A stretch of 40,301 bases of DNA, from the NCBI GenBank assembly GCA_048884945.1, contig JBHLQJ010000001.1, positions 26,977 through 67,277 on the forward strand, given 5' to 3'. The position numbers and the translations under genes were made by a program. A model generated the notes under the pieces. The model saw only the letters and a list, made by a program, of their open reading frames with translations. It searched no databases and had not been told where the DNA came from. The stretch comes from Candidatus Thorarchaeota archaeon. GTDB taxonomy: Archaea; Asgardarchaeota; Thorarchaeia; Thorarchaeales; Thorarchaeaceae. Positions 3,001-40,300 of this stretch are shown here, piece by piece; within the stretch, counting starts at the first letter, position 1; every line of letters starts with the position of its first letter.

Positions 3001-3276
3001 ATTGAGAGAGAATTGAGTAAACATCACTCTTCGGTTTCGAAAAATCATGGATACTATGATCTTTGTGCAGGCAACACTTCGTACGTCATCTTTCCGAATC
3101 AGCAACAATTGAATACACTTCTTCATTTACATAGTGATATAGCATGTAGGAATTGTAGATCAACAAAAGTCATGTGCATCTTAACTGCATCAGAATATCT
3201 TGAAGATAGTGTAACAACACCAAGTAACCTAATTGTAAAAACAATTGATGATAATTTATCCGCTTTAGCAATTTGA
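1..3276 (+). CDS. HerA/FtsK-superfamily P-loop ATPase (DUF87-like), >1072 aa, probably 5'-partial at window edge
   Basis: Frame 1 is open from nt 1, with no stop before the TTG at 58, so the gene likely starts upstream of the window. It has Walker A 'ILGATGTGKTT', Walker B 'HIVVLEEASNL' and a 'VLVISTRPN...TKIVFRL' block typical of HerA-type translocases. The ~470-aa C-terminal extension contains winged-helix-like segments. Confidence 0.6.
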   Translation, partial: ANQIDEILRREATRAEAILLSSLNNVELKLLEGESLQEAILTNMEDVYIDSQNLVSKKGNHSLKVISFQGLPRIFPTQETSQIGTFISTAIKQEYTTSMTCVFSAATPGKEKRVLESQWKHIQTKEKRNEESLKDYTAKKKLLARYEEIHDKAGWFDTSVYFKIIIPIDRHIDTHVDGVNGLVYSIWGNGNSIKLIHKKISRRTIFRVLTRRHLKRRRMHTAQLSSFVNTPIQQLPVITPKQTAVFPVPKKGLIDNELVIGKAVFGGRLLSDVGLEINWLREHVAILGATGTGKTTVVKHLMAQLSEKTNVPWWIFDVKGSEYLDLVGRGESDVLVLKPGFDVSFVTNLIDTEMKDDESYAHSTFVILRELLNERGDSSELSPAMEKLLRDSIMRVLDTLDEGNSVQFLISKIMELSGNDRTGIMTRDALLNRLEILTREPLGSILKGGPKTVQFSDLISKRVIFDLSYVARIGGMDSARLLYNLIAKRIFDSAMKRGISEDLCHIVVLEEASNLVPESYTRQSAADITTGESMVMLQRATGQGVLVISTRPNISSNILANTATKIVFRLPYDSQIGGRFLSLSDSQEQYLRTLKRGRALMSIPHTETFEIATRPFPEVLEQQEKITHIEKDSIPIVESSKTNKIEEDVKSLDLLDSSEEVVEQTLVFNRTDRLGSHVIAFLAAERWATEEEIRNLIAILDSSIVDDDISEVIRNLVSLGSVEREALPLVNGGFVFALPGQVLIAVRHVIIEYISGKLGLEYNSSKISENSDLPDIIFGNKAVVIIPEHLRASSLNLALEKIRNHMSKLQNSVSELFVVVRGSVAAAKLRELMDLSEEFNDVSVVSAFPRFLDSLIESLTHESDISKEPSDQAYLTNTTDVDEEVDLIGAMHDIGSATNRAIQIRLWFGLIQDLVDISNGQVKWEELLEFIETTALQSLKGRSAPLNSEEGKRALTELLADEVLIALRVNEKSQFVELTEGLWLVNSSVLKSLKEKAVVIIERELSKHHSSVSKNHGYYDLCAGNTSYVIFPNQQQLNTLLHLHSDIACRNCRSTKVMCILTASEYLEDSVTTPSNLIVKTIDDNLSALAI

Positions 3277-4597: not shown

Positions 4598-6421
4598 ATG
4601 TGTGGTATAATTGCTGTAGTACAAGAACGTGGTACTGTTGCTCCATTCCTGCATCAAGCGTTAAAGCGTCTTGAATATCGTGGGTATGATTCAGTTGGAG
4701 TGACAACCATTGCTAATAATGTGCTATATACAAAAAAAGACAAGGGAAAGATTGAGGAAGTTCACAAAAGACTCAATCTTGATGAAATGCCAGGACTAAT
4801 TGGAATTGGGCATACTCGATGGGCTACTCATGGTGCTCCATCTATGATAAATGCACATCCACATTTTGATTGTGAAAATAAAATCGCGGTCGTTCACAAT
4901 GGAGTAATTGATAATTTTATGGAGTTAAGAAAAGAGCTGAGCGAAAAAGGGCATAGATTCAGTTCTGAAACTGATACGGAAATTATCCCACATATGATTG
5001 AGGATTTCATGAAAGATGGATTGGATTTAACAGGTGCTATCAAGGAAGTCACTAAACGAATTGAAGGAACATATGCCATCGTGGCTATGGCAACTAATGA
5101 AGGCAATAAGATTGTATGTACACGTGATGGGAACCCTTTAGTCATAGGAACAAAGTCTGGAGCTTCGTATGTTTCTTCTGATATTCCTGCATTTTTACCA
5201 ATGACTAATGATATGATTCTCCTGCTTGATGGAGAGATTGCTAGCTTAACAACTGAAGGTATTTGTATTGAAAGATTGATTGATGGCGCGACTATAGATC
5301 GTGAAACGATTAAGATTAGTTGGACAGCCGATCAGGCACAGAAAAGTGGATACCCCCATTTTATGTTAAAAGAAATACATGAACAGCCTGATGCTATTAA
5401 AAACACACTTAGACTTCGGTCAGAAAATATTGAGAAAGCTGCAGGCATAATCAAAAATTCTGAAAATGTGTATATGTTAGCAATGGGTACCTCTGGACAT
5501 GCTGCCCAGGCTGGGCGACATATGTTTGCATCACTTGCAGGTGTACTCCCATCTTTTGAACTAGCTAGTGATTTTCCAGATACAGTATATGGTGCGTTGT
5601 CAGAAAGGGATTGTATTATTGCAATCACACAATCAGGTGAAACAACTGATACTATTACTGCAGTTAAATATGCGAAAAAGTATGGAGTAAAGATAATTGC
5701 AATCACTAATGTTGTTGGAAGCTCGATAACTCGTCTTGCGGATCATACAGTCATTACACAGGCTGGACCAGAGATTGGTGTCGCTGCAACAAAAACCTTC
5801 ATGGTTCAACTTACTTCTTTAGCTTTGATTGCTTTGGCACTTGCTGAAATGACAAATTTCAGAGAATCTAGAGAAATTAAAAGAAAGAGAGATTCCTTGG
5901 AGAAATTACCTGAACTTATCTCAGAAGTCATCTCAAGAAATGAGGAAAGGTCTCGAAGACTAGCTTCAATACTTTATGAAAGACCAAGTCTTCTTTTCTT
6001 GGGCAGAGGTATTTCAATGGCTACCGCTGAAGAAGGAGCACTCAAGCTTAAAGAAGTGGCATACAATCATGCAGAAGCATATTCTGCAGGGGAATCGAAA
6101 CATGGCCCCATCGCACTAGTTCAGGATAATTATCCTGTCATATTTGTGGCTCCGTCTGATGAAACTAGAAATCGTATTGTTGGTAATATTATGGAAATGA
6201 AGGCAAGAGGTGCAACAATCATATCTGTGATTCAAAAAGATGACGAAGAAATTATGGGTTTATCTGATTATGTTTTTATAATTCCGGAAAGATTAGAACC
6301 TGAATTTTCTATAATGTCATATATTGTACCCTTGCAGTTGTTCAGTTATTATATGGCTTTGAGAAAAGGATACGATCCAGACAAGCCAAGGAACTTAGCA
6401 AAGTCAGTCACAGTTCTTTAG
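4598..6421 (+). CDS. glmS: glutamine--fructose-6-phosphate aminotransferase (isomerizing)
   Basis: It has an N-terminal 'MCGI' Ntn-amidotransferase nucleophile, two SIS domains and a C-terminal 'KPRNLAKSVTV'. Length is 607 aa. Confidence 0.9.
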   Translation: MCGIIAVVQERGTVAPFLHQALKRLEYRGYDSVGVTTIANNVLYTKKDKGKIEEVHKRLNLDEMPGLIGIGHTRWATHGAPSMINAHPHFDCENKIAVVHNGVIDNFMELRKELSEKGHRFSSETDTEIIPHMIEDFMKDGLDLTGAIKEVTKRIEGTYAIVAMATNEGNKIVCTRDGNPLVIGTKSGASYVSSDIPAFLPMTNDMILLLDGEIASLTTEGICIERLIDGATIDRETIKISWTADQAQKSGYPHFMLKEIHEQPDAIKNTLRLRSENIEKAAGIIKNSENVYMLAMGTSGHAAQAGRHMFASLAGVLPSFELASDFPDTVYGALSERDCIIAITQSGETTDTITAVKYAKKYGVKIIAITNVVGSSITRLADHTVITQAGPEIGVAATKTFMVQLTSLALIALALAEMTNFRESREIKRKRDSLEKLPELISEVISRNEERSRRLASILYERPSLLFLGRGISMATAEEGALKLKEVAYNHAEAYSAGESKHGPIALVQDNYPVIFVAPSDETRNRIVGNIMEMKARGATIISVIQKDDEEIMGLSDYVFIIPERLEPEFSIMSYIVPLQLFSYYMALRKGYDPDKPRNLAKSVTVL

Positions 6422-29482: not shown

Positions 29483-30253
29483 TTGAAGACTGTTGTTTTG
29501 CTTCCAAAGGCATATGGTTCATTTAGAGGTCGTCTACTTGAAACAATCAAATCTGAAGTATTACAGATGGTGAAGGAGCTAGACGTCCAAGTCAAAAGTC
29601 TAAACACTAACACCAAAAATCACATCATTATAAAAATCACTGGTGATGATGAGGAATTCATAGCCAATGCACTCACTAAGGAGTATGGGGGCACACTACA
29701 ATCAGATAACCTAGTCCCTCACAAGACATACCTTGGTCAATTAATAGATGTGGGAAAAGTAGGCTATGGTCTTTATTCAGATATAGGGGTTATTGACTCT
29801 AAACGGATGGATGCACTAATCCCTCTTCATCGTTTACGAGAGCAATTTGACTTACATGGGTCTGTTAGGACAATCGCGGACGTTTTTTTGCTTGTAGATC
29901 ATCTTCCTGTTGAAGTAAATCTAACAAGCATCGATTTATTCAACAATAAAATAGAGGCAGAATTCAGTCAATTAACTTTGACACGCATTGCAGATTGGAT
30001 GAACGACGACCATGAAAGACTTCTAATATTTGGCGCCAATCATTACCAAATAGAGAGCTCGCTGAAGAAAACGAATCATAGAGAAGACATCTATGAAATG
30101 GAGCAACTAGGTAAATTCGAATACTCTCTTAGATGCAAACGAAGCACGCGTGCCTCTGGAATACTCGCTGCAATTGGTCCCAAACTCAGAGGTGTTCCTA
30201 TGCACCTCTTCATACCAAAAGAACTTGAGGCTAAAAAGAATGCCAAGGCTTGA
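29483..30253 (+). CDS. conserved archaeal hypothetical protein (DUF2110-like, possible OB/S1-like core)
   Basis: The 256-aa protein has 'YLGQLIDVGKVGYGLYSDIGV', which resembles an S1/OB strand pair. The family assignment comes from memory only. Confidence 0.45.
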   Translation: MKTVVLLPKAYGSFRGRLLETIKSEVLQMVKELDVQVKSLNTNTKNHIIIKITGDDEEFIANALTKEYGGTLQSDNLVPHKTYLGQLIDVGKVGYGLYSDIGVIDSKRMDALIPLHRLREQFDLHGSVRTIADVFLLVDHLPVEVNLTSIDLFNNKIEAEFSQLTLTRIADWMNDDHERLLIFGANHYQIESSLKKTNHREDIYEMEQLGKFEYSLRCKRSTRASGILAAIGPKLRGVPMHLFIPKELEAKKNAKA

Positions 30254-30917
30254 TGTTTGGCTGGTAGAAAAAGGCCGATTCTCATCTCGTCAAGCAGCAA
30301 AAAGAGCCATCAAACAAGGTTTGATAGTTGTCAATGGACGAGAATGTAAACCATCCACTCAAGTTTCTGAAAAAGACAAAATCGAATTACTGAGCGCTGA
30401 AGTCGATGTTCCACAAGGATTCCAAAAGCTAAAGAAACTGGACGAGTGGCTTGAAGACACGTTAGTCTGCAACGAGTGCATAGCTCTTGACATCGGTAGC
30501 TCTGCAGGTGGTTTTCTAACATACTTAGCTCGAAAAGCTGCAACTGTTGTAGGAATTGAGGTATCTCAAAGGTTTGCTGATGAGTTGCATATCATAGCAG
30601 AAAGATATCCCAACATTTCAGTGATTTTTGCTGATGCTTTCAATCTTAATCCACTTACGGTAGCTGATATTGGTCAGCTTAATCTTCTTTTAATTGATGT
30701 AACAACTGAACCCGATGGTACACTGAAATTGATAGAGAGATTTACACCTTTGCTGAAAAAAGGAGGTCGGATGCTCGCAGCCTTCAAATTGCATCACAAA
30801 TCAGAAACACTAGTGTTTCTCAAAGACTCCATTTCGCAGCTTGATTATGTAGAGATTCAAGAAATAACTCTAGATATAACACGCAAAGAAGTACATATCA
30901 CTGCAATTTACATGTAA
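30240..30917 (+). CDS. TlyA-like S4-domain rRNA 2'-O-methyltransferase (FtsJ fold)
   Basis: It has an S4 domain 'RLDVWLVEKGRFSSRQAAKRAIKQGLIVVNG' and a SAM motif 'ALDIGSSAGGF'. The ATG at 30240 overlaps the upstream gene by 14 nt. The tracked start at 30150 is unlikely. Confidence 0.7.
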   Translation: MPRLDVWLVEKGRFSSRQAAKRAIKQGLIVVNGRECKPSTQVSEKDKIELLSAEVDVPQGFQKLKKLDEWLEDTLVCNECIALDIGSSAGGFLTYLARKAATVVGIEVSQRFADELHIIAERYPNISVIFADAFNLNPLTVADIGQLNLLLIDVTTEPDGTLKLIERFTPLLKKGGRMLAAFKLHHKSETLVFLKDSISQLDYVEIQEITLDITRKEVHITAIYM

Positions 30918-30954
30918 GCAACTTTTTATTGTGTCGACAAACCCATCTCTTTTG

Positions 30955-31008
30955 GGGGCGGTAGTCTAGCCCGGCTATGATGTCTCGTTTACACCGAGAA
31001 GGTCGCTG
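30955..31008 (+). pseudogene. truncated tRNA-Val(UAC) fragment (positions 1-52), intron-less
   Basis: The fragment is GGGGCGGTAGTCTAGCCCGGCTATGATGTCTCGTTTACACCGAGAAGGTCGCTG. Its first 46 nt are identical to the 5' part of the full gene at 32645-32600. The next 8 nt match the exon 2 start across the intron. It lacks the rest of the T-arm and the acceptor 3' strand. A TTTTTATT box lies ~25 nt upstream. Confidence 0.75.
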
Positions 31009-31078
31009 CGAATGTATGAACTTATAGCGCATCTTTCATCATTAATTATTGATGGTAGACATTCTTGGGGTATGATAT

Positions 31079-32557
31079 GTGGAAAGAAGACGATATTCCC
31101 GTTCTGAAAGGATCAAGGAAACCGAAGAAACTGACGAAATCAAAGATGAAGAAATAGCCAGAGAGATTGTCAGAGAAGTCGAATTAGTAATAAGAATGAA
31201 ACATGCTTTGGAGAAACTCGAGTCATCAGAAGCTGAATCCGAACCAGAGAAAGTGCCGCTTGACACAAAAAAGGATACAATACACCGAATGTACTTCGAG
31301 GAAGGAAAAACACATTCAGAAATTGCAGAAGAGCTCGGATACGAATCTACAAAACCACTTCAACGGGTCTTTCGTGAAGAAGGATGGGAAGCAAGAGCTG
31401 GGAAAGTAACTGAAATTGAGGATGATGTACATAGGCTGTACTTTGATGAGGGATTATCTCAAAGAGAAGTAGCTGAGGAACTTGGATTAAAATCAGTGAA
31501 GGCTGTAAGAAGGGTTTTCGAGGAACAAGGATGGGAAACGCGTCCCAAAAGAAACCTAGAGTTGGAAAATCAAGCTCGTGAACTGTATTTTGATGAAGAA
31601 CTGACACAGTCAGAGGTAGCCGAAGAACTTGGAATGTCGACAAAGTGGGTTCAGGATGTTTTCAAACGAAATGAATGGGAGGTTCGTTCTCGAAAGATAG
31701 AGGGAATTGAGGATGAAGTCTTTCATTTATACTTCGAAGAGAAACTTACTCAAGAAGAAGTAGCCAAAAAAATGGAACTCTCAAAGGACACAATTCTCCG
31801 AGTGTTTGAAGAGATGGAATGGGAATCACGAGAACCTCGCCGCGGAGTAACAATGAGGACCTTTGAAACTGAAGAAGAGCAGCTTGAAGCTAGAAGAGAA
31901 CATAGACAAGCAACCTATGAGAAAATCAAAGAGCTTAGAGAGGAACTTTTTGGATCAGAGTGTAGAATCTGTCATGCTGATAATGGAACACGTAAGTCAT
32001 TCATACACAAGAAAGATGGTACTGAGCACGAGGACATCAACCTATGGAGTTTGAGAGATTTAGAAAAGATTGAACCAGATGAATGGCGTCGATTGTGTAC
32101 CGCTTGTCACAGAGGCTCACATTGGATGATGGATGAACTTGGTATGGACTGGAGTGAAATTGAATCACTTAGAAAAATAGCTGTAGAAGATACAGAACTA
32201 GAAAACCAATACCGTGAAGGAACAATAACTCTTGACAAAAGTCGCAGGAGTTTTGAGAATGAGAATCTCAGTGTTGAAGACATTAGGAGAGAATTATTCG
32301 GAAACGAGTGTTCTGTATGTAACCAGTCTGAAGTTGAAAAGCGATTGATAATTCACAACAAAGCAGGACTATCCCATGATCGTCACTTTCTTTGGACGAA
32401 GGAAAACCTGAATTCAATCGATCCAGAGGAGTGGATAGTGCTATGCAGAAAATGTCACAGACATGTTCATTGGTCGATGAATAAACTAAGACTTTCTTGG
32501 GAATCAATTGAATCAAGACTTGTAGAATCAAGCGATGGTGGGGCGGGCCGGATTTGA
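31079..32557 (+). CDS. modular DNA-binding/nuclease-like protein: 4 tandem HTH repeats + 2 HNH-like (CxxC...H...CxxCH..H) modules
   Basis: Four ~45-aa repeats ('..YF(E/D)E.L(S/T)Q.EVAEELG......RVFEE.GWE.R') span aa ~65-253. Two ~80-aa repeats carry 'EC.(I/V)C...IH(K/N)K...N(L)...C..CHR..HW' at aa ~285-365 and ~402-480. The last 22 nt run antisense over the tRNA-Val 3' end. Confidence 0.65.
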   Translation: MERRRYSRSERIKETEETDEIKDEEIAREIVREVELVIRMKHALEKLESSEAESEPEKVPLDTKKDTIHRMYFEEGKTHSEIAEELGYESTKPLQRVFREEGWEARAGKVTEIEDDVHRLYFDEGLSQREVAEELGLKSVKAVRRVFEEQGWETRPKRNLELENQARELYFDEELTQSEVAEELGMSTKWVQDVFKRNEWEVRSRKIEGIEDEVFHLYFEEKLTQEEVAKKMELSKDTILRVFEEMEWESREPRRGVTMRTFETEEEQLEARREHRQATYEKIKELREELFGSECRICHADNGTRKSFIHKKDGTEHEDINLWSLRDLEKIEPDEWRRLCTACHRGSHWMMDELGMDWSEIESLRKIAVEDTELENQYREGTITLDKSRRSFENENLSVEDIRRELFGNECSVCNQSEVEKRLIIHNKAGLSHDRHFLWTKENLNSIDPEEWIVLCRKCHRHVHWSMNKLRLSWESIESRLVESSDGGAGRI

Positions 32558-32645
32558 ACCAGCGACCCTCGAGACCAAGAAGCACAGAGCTTCAGTGGTT
32601 TCTCGGTGTAAACGAGACATCATAGCCGGGCTAGACTACCGCCCC
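32536..32645 (-). tRNA. tRNA-Val(UAC) with ~32-nt intron in the variable loop (after position 44), CCA encoded
   Basis: A cloverleaf can be drawn with acceptor GGGGCGG/CCGCCCC, anticodon stem TCTCG/CGAGA, loop TTTACAC and T-arm GCTGG-TTCAAAT-CCGGC. The segment ACCACTGAAGCTCTGTGCTTCTTGGTCTCGAG interrupts A44/G45 and forms its own hairpin. Confidence 0.85.
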
Positions 32646-32699
32646 GATAGATTAGACCTGATATCTGTCGATTAAAAACATTATCGAAGTGGATGAGGA

Positions 32700-33014
32700 C
32701 TATACAGGTATTTTTCTAATCCTCTCATCCACTTCGTGTTCAAGCTCTATAATTATCTGAGCAACTCTTTTTCCAAAATGGTTCAATTCGTAGTATGAGT
32801 AAGAACCCTCATTGGTTCTTTCAAATACATTTACAATTAATCCAATTGAATCAAAGAATTTCAAATCTCTTGCAAGTGTCGTGCTGCTTATGTTGCTTTT
32901 CTTCTTTAGTTTACTAAATGGTATCTTATCTTTGTAAAGATCCATCAGTATCCCACGTTGTCTTTTGTTCTCCAAGAGGTGTAGTATTACTTCTTTTACG
33001 TCCCACTCACTCAT
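32700..33014 (-). CDS. small winged-helix transcriptional regulator (HxlR/ArsR/MarR-like)
   Basis: The 104-aa protein has 'FSKLKKKSNISSTTLARDLKFFDSIGLIV....EGSYSYYELN', which fits an HTH plus wing. Confidence 0.6.
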   Translation of the reverse strand: MSEWDVKEVILHLLENKRQRGILMDLYKDKIPFSKLKKKSNISSTTLARDLKFFDSIGLIVNVFERTNEGSYSYYELNHFGKRVAQIIIELEHEVDERIRKIPV

Positions 33015-33150
33015 TGGCTTGTATCCTCCTCGGAAGCGCTAATCTTCTATTGGTATCATATTTATTATAGTATGGTACTACTTAAAGGTTACTAGGATGG
33101 CAATTACAAACAATTATATAACTTAGTAATATATATGTAACCTAATAACA

Positions 33151-33172
33151 CTTTGTTAAATTAATAACAAAG
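33151..33172. promoter_or_regulatory. inverted repeat CTTTGTTA-N6-TAACAAAG (candidate operator)
   Basis: Perfect 8-bp arms lie in the divergent spacer between the wHTH gene and ORF 33195. TAATAACA is also directly repeated at 33144 and 33162. Confidence 0.3.
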
Positions 33173-33194
33173 ATACGCCGGGAGGACATAAATA

Positions 33195-33779
33195 TTGGTA
33201 GAACTGCGAAAGAAACCACGCAAAATTCGTGGTAGAGTTGAAATGCCAAGAGAAACATGGAATACAAAGGCAGTTACATTTGAGAACAATGTAAACAGAC
33301 ACATGAAAAATATTAGAGTCCTCTTACTCGGTCCTGGTTTTCCCGAAGGTCAGCTGGAAATCCGTACTCAAGTGGCAGAGGAACTTCAGAGAGCTGGGTG
33401 CGATATATATATCATGGAAACGATGGGCCCAATCAGTTCTTTCAACATTGATGAGAAGTTTTGTGACATTTTGAATGAAATTCGTCCCGAACTAATCATT
33501 TGCATATTCACAAAGGAAGGAGCTCCTCATGGTGTGATTTTTGAAATTGGATTCATTTGTGGACACTACGGAATTGAGCAAGCTTTGAATTACCTTCGAT
33601 TTTGTTTTCACAATGAGCTAAAAAAGATTCAAGAAATCCCTGCTTATCTACAGTTTCTAATCTCAAGAACACGCTACTATGAATTCTATGATGAAGATGA
33701 AGGTCCAACACTCTTTGACCGAATCATCCAATACATTCGAGATGAGGTCGTCAGACAATATTGTCCCACTGATTTATAA
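33195..33779 (+). CDS. hypothetical protein, nucleoside 2-deoxyribosyltransferase-like / Rossmann-like fold (tentative)
   Basis: 'RVLLLGPGF' and 'HGVIFEIGFICGHYG' resemble the 'YLAGP.F' and 'D.GT.FE.G.A' motifs of the NDT-like superfamily. The start is uncertain (TTG 33195, ATG 33243 or ATG 33303). Confidence 0.4.
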   Translation: MVELRKKPRKIRGRVEMPRETWNTKAVTFENNVNRHMKNIRVLLLGPGFPEGQLEIRTQVAEELQRAGCDIYIMETMGPISSFNIDEKFCDILNEIRPELIICIFTKEGAPHGVIFEIGFICGHYGIEQALNYLRFCFHNELKKIQEIPAYLQFLISRTRYYEFYDEDEGPTLFDRIIQYIRDEVVRQYCPTDL

Positions 33780-33905
33780 AATAATAACTGGTCATCACCA
33801 ATTGACTTTAACACCAAAGAGTTGAAGAGTAGGCATGCCTCAGGGAAAAAATGCGGTGAGCTCCTACAACTGAATGATGGATTGCCGCTGACCAGACCGA
33901 GCACA

Positions 33906-34027
33906 GCGGGAGTAGCCAAGCCCGGTCAAAGGCGGCGGACTTAAGATCGCATGAGATTAAGGGGTCATGTGAATAGGCTATCCGCTCTCGTAGGAGTTCG
34001 TGGGTTCGAAGCCCACCTCCCGCACCA
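33906..34027 (+). tRNA. tRNA-Leu(UAA) with canonical 37/38 intron (~34 nt), long variable arm, CCA encoded
   Basis: It has acceptor GCGGGAG/CTCCCGC, anticodon stem GCGGA/TCCGC, loop CTTAAG[intron]A, variable arm TCTCGTAGGAGTTC and T-arm GTGGG-TTCGAAG-CCCAC. The intron lies at about 33946-33979. Confidence 0.9.
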
Positions 34028-40224: not shown

Positions 40225-40300
40225 TGGAGCCCCAGGCGAGATTTGAACTCGCGACCTGCTGATTACAAGTCAGCCGCTATAGCCTCTAAGCCACTGGGGC
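40225..40300 (-). tRNA. tRNA-Thr(UGU), no intron, CCA encoded
   Basis: The minus strand reads GCCCCAGTGGCTTAGAGGCTATAGCGGCTGACTTGTAATCAGCAGGTCGCGAGTTCAAATCTCGCCTGGGGCTCCA. The anticodon loop is CTTGTAA. Confidence 0.9.

Follow-up and report, generated by a model that had tools for sequence, protein, structure and literature searches.

A perfect 46-nt repeat of the first exon of a valine tRNA gene brackets a helix-turn-helix (HTH)/HNH gene in the chromosome of a Candidatus Thorarchaeota archaeon. We read the segment 30955-32700 as a small insertion cassette that has recombined with tRNA-Val(UAC) in exon 1, the HTH/HNH protein being most likely the selfish agent (rough probability 0.6). Positions are those of the window, the whole stretch of 40,301 nt that was analysed. 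The evidence is the anatomy of the locus, the empty sites of relatives, the patchy occurrence of the gene, two promoters of different origin, the domain build of the protein and the association of its family with tRNA genes. The following features were identified:

30923-30930, plus strand: TATA-like box TTTTTATT of the native host tRNA-Val, which also precedes the intact tRNA-Val in empty-site relatives
30955-31000, plus strand: exon-1 copy of a truncated tRNA-Val (Sprinzl positions 1-44), left arm of the inverted repeat, by sequence match
31001-31008, plus strand: exon-2 remnant GGTCGCTG, joined without the intron and reaching position 52, putatively cassette-borne
31021-31028, plus strand: conserved CTTATAGC motif, probable TATA box of the ORF (TTATAG in all six cassette lineages)
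31079-32557, plus strand: ORF of 492 aa (GTG start) that encodes four tandem sigma-70-region-4-like HTH units and a pair of HNH-like modules
31259-31816, plus strand: the four HTH units (residues ~61-246, period 49 aa; Pfam Sigma70_r4, E=3.2e-19, four stretches)
31928-32164, plus strand: HNH-like module 1 (residues 284-362), CxxC..IHKKDG..H..CxxCHxxxH, from AF2, fold search and PHROG
32276-32512, plus strand: HNH-like module 2 (residues 400-478), from Pfam HNH and PHROG HNH families
32536-32567, minus strand: exon 2 and encoded CCA of the complete tRNA-Val(UAC), whose exons are 100% identical to those of the relative L015
32568-32599, minus strand: 32-nt BHB-type intron of the host-lineage type, like the introns of L015, L024 and L022
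32600-32645, minus strand: exon 1 of the complete tRNA-Val, right arm of the inverted repeat, from the repeat and the Rfam call
32646-32699, minus strand: cassette-type promoter and leader of the complete tRNA, with TTTTTAAT at 32671-32678 (minus strand)
32700-33014, minus strand: HxlR-like HTH gene, 82% identical to a gene of L024
33195-33779, plus strand: ORF of 194 aa, 77% identical to a gene of L024

The plus strand of 30955-31000 is 100% complementary to 32600-32645, as had been claimed in an earlier sequence-only reading, which took these to be 5' parts of tRNA-Val in a perfect 46-bp inverted repeat. The 21-nt core of the repeat occurs at just two sites in the window, where shuffled sequences give an expectation of 0. 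The plus-strand copy runs on as GGTCGCTG (31001-31008), the first bases of exon 2, and then diverges; the same reading had described this partial copy as intron-less and ending at tRNA position 52, and the match to exon 2 confirms it. The exon-1 copy at 30955-31000 is the presumed recombination junction.

The complete gene was detected by Rfam on the minus strand (32539-32645, 49.7 bits), its variable region being interrupted by 32 nt; neither intron-bearing tRNA was called by ARAGORN, and Rfam was needed. With its encoded CCA the gene occupies 32536-32645 and consists of exon 1 (46 nt), the intron (32 nt) and exon 2 (32 nt). Inserts of 30-36 nt were found at the same junction in 49 distinct alleles of relatives. 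The inner hairpin of the intron covaries, with compensatory changes across alleles, and a conserved (A/C)TCGA at the intron 3' end pairs with an exon CGAG beside an A-rich bulge. Precisely intron-less full tRNA-Val genes were found in L049, L068 and L072. The 49 alleles, the covarying hairpin and the intron-less relatives confirm the proposal of a ~32-nt intron after position 44, and together these sequence features mark the insert as a genuine archaeal BHB tRNA intron. It is unlike the introns of the other cassette lineages.

Genomes were scanned with the neighbouring methyltransferase, giving ~60 Thorarchaeota loci in which the presence or absence of the ORF could be compared, as had been proposed. 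About 50 species have an empty site, at which the methyltransferase, promoter, intact intron-containing tRNA-Val, tRNA-Leu, GDT1 and GatD are found. The nearest relative, L015 (methyltransferase 86% identical), has such a site, with identical exons and a similar intron. The ORF is present in six lineages (the window, L001/L085, L004, L007, L009 and L010). On the host tree these loci are spread over at least five clades, and in every case there are near relatives without the ORF; L009 carries it and L040 does not, their methyltransferases being 93% identical. Cassette loci have a common order: native promoter, exon 1, intron-less exon-2 stub, ORF, second promoter and full tRNA with an intron of the host type. 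The second promoter is common to the cassettes, the upstream flanks are lineage-specific and the introns are host-specific. In the five other lineages the intron-less junction goes together with the cassette, and there the reconstituted tRNA and its partial copy form direct repeats of exon 1, as in integrative elements. Neither in the window nor in L001-L011 was a gene or domain of a tyrosine or serine recombinase detected inside the repeats or next to them.

The two copies in the window have different upstream regions. The methyltransferase stop codon (30915-30917) directly precedes the native TATA-like box, and the upstream region of L015 is nearly identical to that of the window up to the tRNA start. 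The leader of the complete tRNA shares ATAATGTTTTTAATCnACA with cassette loci of distant lineages, and the same sequence was found downstream of the HxlR gene in L024. By these matches, one upstream region is host-derived and the other cassette-derived. It had been suggested that the duplication included the promoter; the upstream regions are not duplicates, and identity ends exactly at tRNA position 1. A CGACA is common to both and is not kept in relatives. The ORF has a probable promoter of its own in CTTATAGC: TTATAG lies ~50-70 nt ahead of the start codon in 6/6 cassette lineages, and the ORF stays intact in L001-3, where the promoter of the stub is deleted. Capture of a processed-tRNA copy as a promoter, another earlier suggestion, finds no support, as a native promoter precedes the stub and the ORF has the conserved TTATAG. 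A bacterial promoter and terminator scan was set aside, the host being an archaeon.

The 492-aa ORF ends where the sequence-only reading had placed its end, 22 nt inside the 3' end of the complete tRNA (counting CCA), and its last seven codons are antisense to that end. The DNA of the HTH array contains direct repeats at 147 nt spacing, and the HTH units are three-helix in the predicted structure. For module 1, the AF2 model (pLDDT 91) contains two strands (307-311, 336-340) and a helix (341-354). The putative zinc ligands of CxxC...CxxC (C295, C298, C340 and C343) are invariant in the family, as are H310 (in IH[RK]KDG), H317 and H344; H348 is nearly so, and the family does not conserve the canonical central Asn. 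Fold search of module 1, modelled in isolation, against the PDB gave almost exclusively HNH nucleases as top matches (Cap5, Gme HNH, Cas9 HNH and McrA), although these are weak (E 0.09-5, TM ~0.45); fold search of the whole model gave HTH proteins only. In PHROG, the C-terminal 227 aa matched HNH-endonuclease family 5956 (E=5.7e-7) and also 1985, 3106, 119, 8048 and 2255, and phrog_8446 'HNH endonuclease' matched the whole protein (E=9.6e-27). Pfam PF01844 (HNH) was the commonest match of 27 modules of the family (17/27 at E<=1, best 4.2e-5); the modules of the window itself miss the Pfam cut-off of 21.4 bits, module 2 scoring 14.1 bits (E=0.054). A search of PDB sequences with the C-terminal half gave no match, and PDB profile search gave marginal HNH matches only (ZRANB3 0.058, McrA 0.26) among spurious Rop matches. 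From the profile matches and the weak fold matches, the protein is probably a member of the HNH (beta-beta-alpha-metal) superfamily. An HTH array with a predicted HNH domain is the build of phage free-standing homing endonucleases. Nothing relevant was detected by PADLOC.

We infer a crossover, gain rather than loss of the ORF, and a nuclease activity with its target as follows. The cassette would bring a promoter of its own, followed by a tRNA-Val that lacks the intron and is cut short (positions 1 to 52-55), a leader with its own TATA box and the HTH/HNH gene. A single crossover, or double-strand break repair, inside the 46-nt exon 1 would place the native promoter on the left, before exon 1 and the intron-less stub brought by the cassette; the ORF would follow, and on the right the cassette promoter would precede an exon 1 that continues into the intron and exon 2 of the host. 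On the side of the stub, all DNA 3' of the crossover would come from the cassette, hence the missing intron; on the side of the complete gene it would come from the host, which would explain why the host intron is there. The protein is most likely a homing-type endonuclease: it would recognise a tRNA gene and promote recombination. The earlier suggestion that an HNH homing-type gene entered an intron-less tRNA-Val paralogue comes closest to what was found as regards the insertion, given the HTH/HNH build, tRNA-associated homologues and patchiness; the paralogue part fails. A second intron-less tRNA-Val paralogue was rejected as the source of the stub, which sits in the place of the sole tRNA-Val(UAC) of the locus, behind that gene's promoter; the gene is intact and intron-containing in L015. 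Several points weigh against the cassette as a homing unit. No recombinase or integrase is present, and the HNH assignment comes from profiles and weak fold matches. Repeated gain could also be mimicked by frequent clean loss through recombination at the direct repeats. Genomes with the cassette retain exon 1 in both tRNA copies, and therefore a nuclease directed at exon 1 would somehow need to leave its own locus uncut. No free or circular form was seen, and no relatives of the ORF were found in a scan of viral contigs.

Distant homologues (33-41% identical) adjoin tRNA-Val(CAC), tRNA-Ser, tRNA-Thr and tRNA-Leu(GAG), in surroundings that are unrelated; five of the seven informative contexts are tRNA-adjacent. 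Clustering of the family gives ~48 representatives with two modules. The tRNA-Val(CAC), in L012, was assigned by manual reading and gave no Rfam call even in a small window. In L081, the homologue and a TPR gene lie between two direct copies of a 17-nt piece of the tRNA-Ser 3' end. In L084, the end of the homologous ORF is antisense over the tRNA 3' end, in the same frame as in the window (..DGAEGEI* versus ..DGGAGRI* in L084), and a 23-nt inverted repeat of the tRNA end is present. No tRNA-derived repeats of >=14 nt were detected around the homologues in L013 and L014. A metagenome scan gave three loci only, and a word-indexed search with the module profile added only fragments.

The tRNA pieces could instead be the attL and attR of a passive integrative element, moved by a tyrosine recombinase encoded elsewhere (cis-mobilisable) and carrying the HTH/HNH gene as cargo, e.g., a regulatory protein or a nuclease for defence or exclusion. 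Inserts flanked by direct repeats of tRNA ends are a hallmark of archaeal integrase integration, by which the Caldiarchaeum case discussed below has been explained; the 17-nt repeat of L081 is of this kind, and the locus is a hotspot that also receives TnpB and HxlR modules. We consider this explanation unlikely. There is no integrase in or near any of the six cassette loci, the HTH/HNH ORF, with its phage homing endonuclease build, is the only constant gene, and the occurrence of the family at five different tRNAs fits a target choice encoded by the protein.

Another explanation is that the ORF is an old, vertically inherited cellular gene (e.g., a DNA-binding regulator), that the stub is a pseudogene of an ancient tandem tRNA-Val duplication whose similarity gene conversion has maintained, and that patchiness results from many independent deletions at the direct repeats. 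Synteny is kept wherever the ORF is present, and the ORF is under purifying selection (dN/dS ~0.15 in the L001-L004 pair). Clean loss via the direct repeats could be an alternative source of patchiness, as deletion between 46-nt repeats would give back a scar-free empty site, and lineage-specific changes in the acceptor stem are common to the stub and the full gene. This history would, however, require on the order of at least 15 independent losses on the host tree. The divergence of the ORF equals that of its neighbour in the vertical pair L001-L004 (ORF vs. methyltransferase: pN 0.064 vs. 0.075, pS 0.34 vs. 0.44) and is about half that of the neighbours at depth: between the window and L004, the ORF has pN 0.12 and pS 0.61, and the methyltransferase pN 0.30 and pS 0.79 (saturated). 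By this measure the ORF is younger than the host split. L009 is placed differently in the ORF and host trees; its ORF groups with that of the window (78%) and not with that of L007 (69%), although its host proteins are closest to those of L007. The distant homologues at other tRNAs, two with tRNA-end repeats, and the junction of an intron-less stub beside host-specific introns also do not fit, and vertical inheritance is in our view improbable. The pattern found is that of a homing gene, sporadic at one conserved site and less diverged than its flanks. No transfer is recent, because ORF copies are 65-78% identical, and this counts against the cassette as a homing unit.

The tRNA is inverted relative to the ORF only in the window, in one assembly; all relatives have the direct orientation. 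Inversion, which had been offered earlier as one possible cause of the arrangement, is retained as a secondary, window-specific event and rejected as the primary cause, since the copies in relatives are all direct. Under the cassette reading, the tRNA and the cassette promoter would additionally have been inverted in the window, where a linked two-gene module is present. By such an inversion the usual direct repeat would become an inverted repeat of 46 perfectly matched nt. The ORF segment would flip if the two arms recombined, and one complete tRNA-Val would remain in either case. The inverted orientation may also stem from misassembly, or two flip isomers may coexist of which this is one; the organism's real or predominant arrangement could then be another. 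In favour, all other lineages are direct, the perfect repeat of 46 nt falls below the length of some assembly k-mers, and both isomers would have the same short k-mers. This is quite improbable. The junction between the ORF end and the tRNA 3' end lies inside the segment, differs from that of the relatives and would be left in place by flipping at the arms; moreover, the same antisense overlap in the same frame is found with the distant homologue of L084, in an independent assembly. The HxlR-like gene and the 194-aa ORF (32700-33779) form an adjacent pair in L024, which is without the HNH ORF, and are absent from the other cassette loci; on this distribution they are a linked variable module. 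When the window was aligned with the region downstream of HxlR in L024, homology stopped at the tRNA start. The host spacer starts again at ~33794.

In comparison with the ~60 loci, the stub begins at 30955 in the native tRNA-Val position behind the native promoter. It ends 8-11 nt beyond the intron site and not at it. In four other lineages the exon-2 remnant is 11 nt long (GGTCGCTGGTT, or GGTCGCTGGGT in L009), and a T-run comes next, followed by homologous leader sequence. The pattern of decay in the stub looks like that of a relic. The stub was also rejected as a split-tRNA half of the Nanoarchaeum/Caldivirga type, since no second 3' part is found within the window and an intact gene is present. 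Alternatively, the stub might itself be functional, encoding a 5' tRNA half or a small RNA (split-tRNA or regulatory RNA) with a native promoter and T-run termination. In favour, the promoter is kept at the right distance in five lineages, a T-run lies behind the stub in relatives and the acceptor-stem bases track those of the full gene. We consider this highly improbable: the window has a complete gene and no matching 3' half, the stub is 5'-deleted in L001-3 and complete in the near-identical L085, a mutation breaks a stem in L010, where the exon-2 part has decayed as well, and the window copy has lost the T-run.

The sequence-only reading knew of no described element with this geometry. This was incorrect, as a similar arrangement has been described in Caldiarchaeum (Sugahara et al., 2012; PMC3293823). 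In the tRNA-Thr(GGU) of Caldiarchaeum subterraneum, a 5' tRNA fragment with its native upstream flank is followed by a 1.87-kb insertion and a complete tRNA; the insertion has one DNA-binding ORF (271 aa, no HNH reported), the tRNA copies are direct repeats, and intron content differs between the fragment and the complete tRNA (PMC3293823). It was proposed that a mobile element recombined with the tRNA gene and that the intron differences were inherited through the junction (PMC3293823). The native-flank fragment, the insert with a DNA-binding ORF and the complete tRNA of differing intron content are all found here. The phylum, tRNA and ORF, as described, are different. The Caldiarchaeum element adds an intron, whereas the element side is without one in Thorarchaeota; the former is a polymorphism within a population, the latter patchy across species and inverted in one lineage.

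Elements of the SSV/pNOB8 type target tRNA genes by tyrosine recombinases, with one end of a tRNA gene as attP (PMC3293823; review PMC8371274). After they have integrated, the tRNA is whole again and a partial direct repeat remains, and an element ORF can overlap the att site (PMC3293823). The cassette resembles them in its reconstituted tRNA, partial repeat and ORF overlapping the tRNA end; unlike them, it has no tyrosine recombinase, is only ~1.6 kb long and duplicates the 5' 52-55 nt, including the anticodon arm.

Phage free-standing homing endonucleases are likewise stand-alone genes beside tRNAs, with tandem HTH units, a small nuclease domain and a patchy occurrence. F-TflI, F-TflII and F-TflIV of T5 are free-standing HNH homing endonucleases in tRNA gene clusters. 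SegB of T4, a GIY-YIG enzyme, is a free-standing homing endonuclease in a tRNA gene cluster (PMC13096335; PMC2988022). These enzymes spread by break-induced recombination with co-conversion of flanks, and the same is proposed for the cassette. Unlike them, the cassette lies in a cellular Asgard chromosome, part of its target is duplicated, and its nuclease is predicted from sequence. Cyanophage F-CphI/psbA is an example of collaborative homing. In T4 mobE/I-TevIII, a free-standing HNH gene lies beside an intron-containing gene in the same way (PMC2790892). Here too an HNH gene adjoins an intron-bearing target whose intron-less form could be a substrate; this is a resemblance only, and the introns are BHB-type and not group I. 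The intron did not block acquisition of the cassette, because the recipient lineages already carry it. The profile of Cbp1, the CRISPR-repeat-binding protein of Sulfolobales (NCBIfam NF040595; PDB 2lvs), matched at E=6.4e-13 and a score of 48.8, far under the family cut-off of 140, and a fold match was also obtained. Both proteins have a tandem HTH array, which in Cbp1 reads a long DNA site; unlike the ORF product, Cbp1 is without nuclease modules or tRNA association.

tRNA genes are classic landing sites for mobile DNA in archaea, and disrupted forms of them, be they intron-containing, split or permuted, have long been puzzling. The locus is probably a small, mobile HNH-gene cassette in an Asgard chromosome, an unusual variant of the known targeting of archaeal tRNA genes by mobile DNA. 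Its constant gene encodes a homing-endonuclease-like HTH/HNH protein and not an integrase, and one phylum provides a natural series of empty sites, occupied sites, decaying stubs, an inverted version and neighbouring intron-less alleles. If the protein cuts tRNA genes, this would be the first free-standing homing system of cellular Asgard archaea aimed at tRNA genes and would provide a handle on the shuffling of tRNA introns. A bolder idea, which we put forward as speculative and doubtful, is that the family is a new class of Asgard tRNA-gene-specific homing endonucleases, in which the HTH array of each subfamily would read one tRNA gene. Spread of the cassette would then be coupled to gain and loss of tRNA introns; a host intron or truncation of the stub would give immunity, and excision via short exon-2 homology could make intron-less alleles such as that of L049. 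Such a class would be testable support for the old idea that archaeal tRNA introns protect against tRNA-targeting elements.

The NCBI records obtained in the homologue search label the family "sigma factor-like helix-turn-helix DNA-binding protein". For annotation, "sigma factor-like" stands against a probable nuclease, as predicted here, and truncated tRNA stubs with intact promoters beside a gene of this family should not be counted as tRNA genes.

The HTH/HNH gene of the window (hereafter the ORF) lies between a truncated, intron-less tRNA-Val copy (the stub, 30955-31008, plus strand) and a complete tRNA-Val gene:

31079-32557, plus strand: the ORF, GTG start, 492 aa, stop codon 22 nt inside the 3' end of the tRNA on the opposite strand
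32539-32645, minus strand: complete tRNA-Val according to Rfam (49.7 bits), its variable region longer by 32 nt
32536-32645, minus strand: tRNA-Val(UAC) with encoded CCA, made up of exon 1 (46 nt), intron (32 nt), and exon 2 (32 nt)

The sequence-only reading had described a 46-nt inverted repeat, an intron-less partial copy breaking off at position 52, an intron of about 32 nt after position 44, and a 492-aa ORF ending 22 nt inside the 3' end of the full tRNA on the opposite strand; all of these were borne out. The repeat is exact (100%), 30955-31000 being the reverse complement of 32600-32645, and its 21-nt core has no further occurrence in the window (0 expected in shuffles). Beyond 31000 the plus-strand copy runs on as GGTCGCTG (31001-31008) and diverges thereafter. 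The anticodon of the complete gene is UAC; by our count its intron interrupts the tRNA between Sprinzl positions 44 and 45, and position 52 is the last one in the stub. The duplication had also been thought to include a promoter, which was not borne out, since the identity of the copies ends at tRNA position 1.

Comparison with relatives indicates that the 32-nt insert is a real intron. Inserts of 30-36 nt were found at the same junction in 49 distinct alleles, among which the inner hairpin covaries, and the conserved intron 3' (A/C)TCGA pairs with exon CGAG beside an A-rich bulge. In three species, full tRNA-Val genes lacking precisely these nucleotides were found. Within the phylum the position of the tRNA-Val(UAC) intron differs: it is 44/45 in most species, in the D-loop at one locus (L046), and in the T-loop after GGTTC at three (L060, L062, L067), near the end point of the stub, and the intron is absent from L049, L068, and L072. 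At these variable loci the tRNA-Val was read just downstream of the methyltransferase.

The locus was compared using the adjacent methyltransferase as query and one genome per species, which yielded 59 Thorarchaeota loci. About 50 of them have an empty site, that is, a tRNA-Val locus without the ORF, in which a GCAAC-TTTTTATT box comes after the methyltransferase stop, with a complete tRNA-Val that contains an intron about 25 nt further on; a spacer, tRNA-Leu(UAA), GDT1, and GatD follow. The window stub starts exactly where the native tRNA-Val of the empty sites starts, and the same promoter precedes it. The site is empty in the nearest relative (L015, methyltransferase 86% identical), in which promoter and leader are near-identical to those of the window, the tRNA exons identical, and the intron similar.

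Six lineages bear the ORF (window, L001/L085, L004, L007, L009, and L010). In all of them but the window, the native promoter, exon 1, an intron-less exon-2 remnant (to position 55), and a T-run are followed by a TTATAG box, the ORF, a second promoter (ATAATGTTTTTAATCnACA), exon 1, a host-type intron, and exon 2, with both tRNA copies on one strand. Ahead of the stub each lineage has its own sequence, which agrees with that of ORF-less sister genomes (L009 and L040 hardly differ in this part). All ORF-bearing loci share homologous versions of the stub 3' end, leader, ORF, and second promoter, and the full-gene intron tracks the host lineage. The stub behaves like a relic: L001-3 have lost its 5' part by deletion, L085 (with the same ORF sequence as L001) has it complete, L010 shows a stem-breaking change and a decayed end, and in the window the T-run is lost.

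In the methyltransferase tree, ORF-bearing loci are spread over at least five clades and in each case have ORF-less relatives beside them. Across clades the ORF is 66-78% identical, versus 47-69% for the methyltransferase, DUF2110, and MBF1, and the ORF of L009 is nearest to those of the window and L004, while the L009 host proteins are nearest to L007.

Divergence of the ORF and the adjacent methyltransferase
L001-L004 (vertical pair), ORF: pN 0.064, pS 0.34
L001-L004 (vertical pair), methyltransferase: pN 0.075, pS 0.44
Window-L004, ORF: pN 0.12, pS 0.61
Window-L004, methyltransferase: pN 0.30, pS 0.79 (saturated)

Taken together, the patchiness, the divergence, the tree conflict, and a dN/dS of about 0.15 for the ORF (L001-L004) favor the view that a functional gene has spread horizontally. 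An ancient origin followed by many losses is less favored; it keeps some probability because recombination between direct repeats would perfectly restore the empty site.

We consider it likely, with a probability of roughly 0.6, that a tRNA-Val-targeted cassette recombined within exon 1. The cassette would consist of the second promoter, the truncated intron-less tRNA-Val, the leader, and the ORF, and would have recombined with the resident tRNA-Val inside exon 1, either by a single crossover of a circle or by break repair templated by a cassette-bearing allele. The stub would be intron-less because the DNA 3' of its crossover is that of the cassette, and the full gene would have an intron because there the DNA 3' of the crossover is that of the host; recombination inside exon 1 would also explain two unrelated promoters, one from each. 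The HTH/HNH protein is probably the agent of the cassette, a claim held less firmly than the cassette and its junction. Of the earlier proposals, insertion of an HNH gene at tRNA-Val agrees with the comparison of ORF locus and empty sites; the separate intron-less paralogue that went with it does not, the stub being at the native gene's place behind the native promoter. An inversion between tRNA-Val copies survives as a secondary event only, the full tRNA and the cassette promoter being inverted in the window alone among ORF-bearing loci. Capture of a processed-tRNA copy as promoter or leader is unsupported: a conserved TTATAG box of its own is kept before the ORF, which is intact where the stub's promoter is gone.

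The N-terminal part of the ORF product comprises four sigma-70-region-4-like HTH units with a period of 49 aa (Pfam E=3.2e-19, four stretches; structure model). The second part holds two copies of a module with the invariant pattern CxxC...IH(R/K)KDG..H...CxxCHxxxH, which sequence and model suggest to be HNH-like. Pfam HNH gave no call in the window protein itself; over 27 modules of the family it is the most frequent Pfam match (best E 4.2e-5). PHROG HNH-endonuclease families match the C-terminal half (E down to 5.7e-7), and the whole protein matches phrog_8446 "HNH endonuclease" (9.6e-27). For the module 1 model (pLDDT 91), PDB fold matches are almost only HNH nucleases, with weak E-values. 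Free-standing phage homing endonucleases are built likewise, from HTH units in tandem joined to a small nuclease domain. At E<=0.001 the module family comprises 484 cluster representatives; each of the 48 at E<=1e-30 has at least two module matches. No members were found in a scan of viral contigs. The module also occurs in many small single-module proteins (90-190 aa, E 1e-13 to 1e-30).

Distant homologues (33-41% identical) occur in unrelated contexts and adjoin tRNAs: tRNA-Val(CAC), read manually, in L012; tRNA-Ser in L013 and L081; tRNA-Thr in L014; and tRNA-Leu(GAG) in L084. With the tRNA-Val(UAC) site counted as one, five of seven informative contexts adjoin a tRNA, far beyond chance if, as we estimate, a few per cent of genes neighbor one. 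In L081 the tRNA-Ser 3' end recurs 1.75 kb downstream as a 17-nt direct copy, which brackets the homologue and one more gene. In L084 the homologue P0007 overlaps the 3' end of tRNA-Leu(GAG) by 19 nt, its last codons antisense to the tRNA in the same frame as in the window ORF (..DGAEGEI* vs ..DGGAGRI*), and a perfect 23-nt inverted copy of that 3' end lies 2.2 kb away (3044-3066 and 5293-5315). These copies bracket a gene with a faint HNH_2 match and a 332-aa ORF. Two genomes, JABCTV (L032, L013) and JAFGAR (L037, L012), combine an empty tRNA-Val(UAC) site with a family member at another tRNA. The tRNA-Val(CAC) of L012 (2332-2441, canonical intron of about 32 nt), which Rfam did not call, lies just downstream of the 756-aa homologue P0009, and 120 nt beyond this tRNA is an orphan tRNA 3'-end piece, CAAATCTCGTCCGGCCCACCA (2563-2583), preceded by a TTTTTAT box.

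In the window the usual stop codon of the ORF is gone, and reading continues for seven codons into the tRNA antisense. Beyond the tRNA stand two extra genes, after which the host spacer resumes near 33794:

32700-33014, minus strand: HxlR-like gene
33195-33779, plus strand: 194-aa ORF

Their counterparts in L024 (82% and 77% identical) likewise adjoin each other. L024 belongs to the window's clade and lacks the HNH ORF; its pair lies, along with a TnpB-like gene, inside a 4-kb insertion into tRNA-Leu. The locus is accordingly a hotspot. In L024 (6040-10190, LRSL01000069, Thorarchaeota SMTZ1-45) the insertion cuts the tRNA-Leu next to tRNA-Val in the T-loop (..GGGTTCG|GTGAATAAG) and holds the HxlR and 203-aa pair, a 477-aa ORF without a Pfam match, and the TnpB-like gene. 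Sequence downstream of the HxlR gene in L024 is homologous to the window cassette promoter. Two routes would each give the present order: integration followed by one inversion, or entry of a reversed unit at the 3' end of the tRNA and then a flip between exon-1 copies. Recombination between the 46-nt arms would flip 31001-32599, placing the complete tRNA behind the native promoter and the stub and ORF behind the cassette promoter, so that both isomers would be viable. At L050 (5715-7915, DXJO01000020), which has no HTH/HNH ORF, tRNA-Val occurs twice without an intron: a truncated copy (positions 1-65) with the host-type acceptor stem and, after 60 nt that include a TTTTAATC-type box, a full copy whose acceptor stem differs. 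A 561-aa TnpB gene (OrfB_IS605/Cas12f TNB) comes next. Here tRNA-Val has been duplicated in a second, different way.

Partial tRNA repeats are standard at the borders of integrase-bearing archaeal elements. The window geometry is not new in kind: for Caldiarchaeum, a tRNA-Thr 5' fragment and a complete tRNA-Thr of different intron content have been described on either side of a 1.87-kb insertion that has one DNA-binding ORF, and were explained by a mobile element that recombined with the tRNA gene and carried intron differences through the junction (Sugahara et al., 2012; PMC3293823). T4 SegB is a free-standing homing endonuclease inside a tRNA cluster (PMC13096335, PMC2988022). In contrast to the known cases, there is no recombinase here; the constant gene encodes an HTH-array/HNH protein and resides on cellular Asgard chromosomes, the duplication covers the 5' 52-55 nt of the tRNA, the element side is intron-less, and one lineage (the window) has an inverted, potentially invertible form.

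The flanking genes (PAN, MBF1, TFE, DUF2110, S4/FtsJ methyltransferase, GDT1, and GatD/E) have homologues that place the window among Thorarchaeota-like Asgard archaea. Taken from the GTG at 30150, the methyltransferase ORF is at its longest (30150-30917) and shares about 100 nt with the DUF2110 gene; the true start is probably the ATG equivalent to 30243 (MPRLDVW..), where relatives start. Rfam detects all three window tRNAs and ARAGORN only tRNA-Thr(UGU):

33906-34024, plus strand: second intron-bearing tRNA (Rfam; no ARAGORN call), read as tRNA-Leu(UAA) from its anticodon loop CTTAAGA, 37-nt canonical intron, and long variable arm
40228-40300, minus strand: intron-less tRNA-Thr(UGU) (ARAGORN and Rfam)
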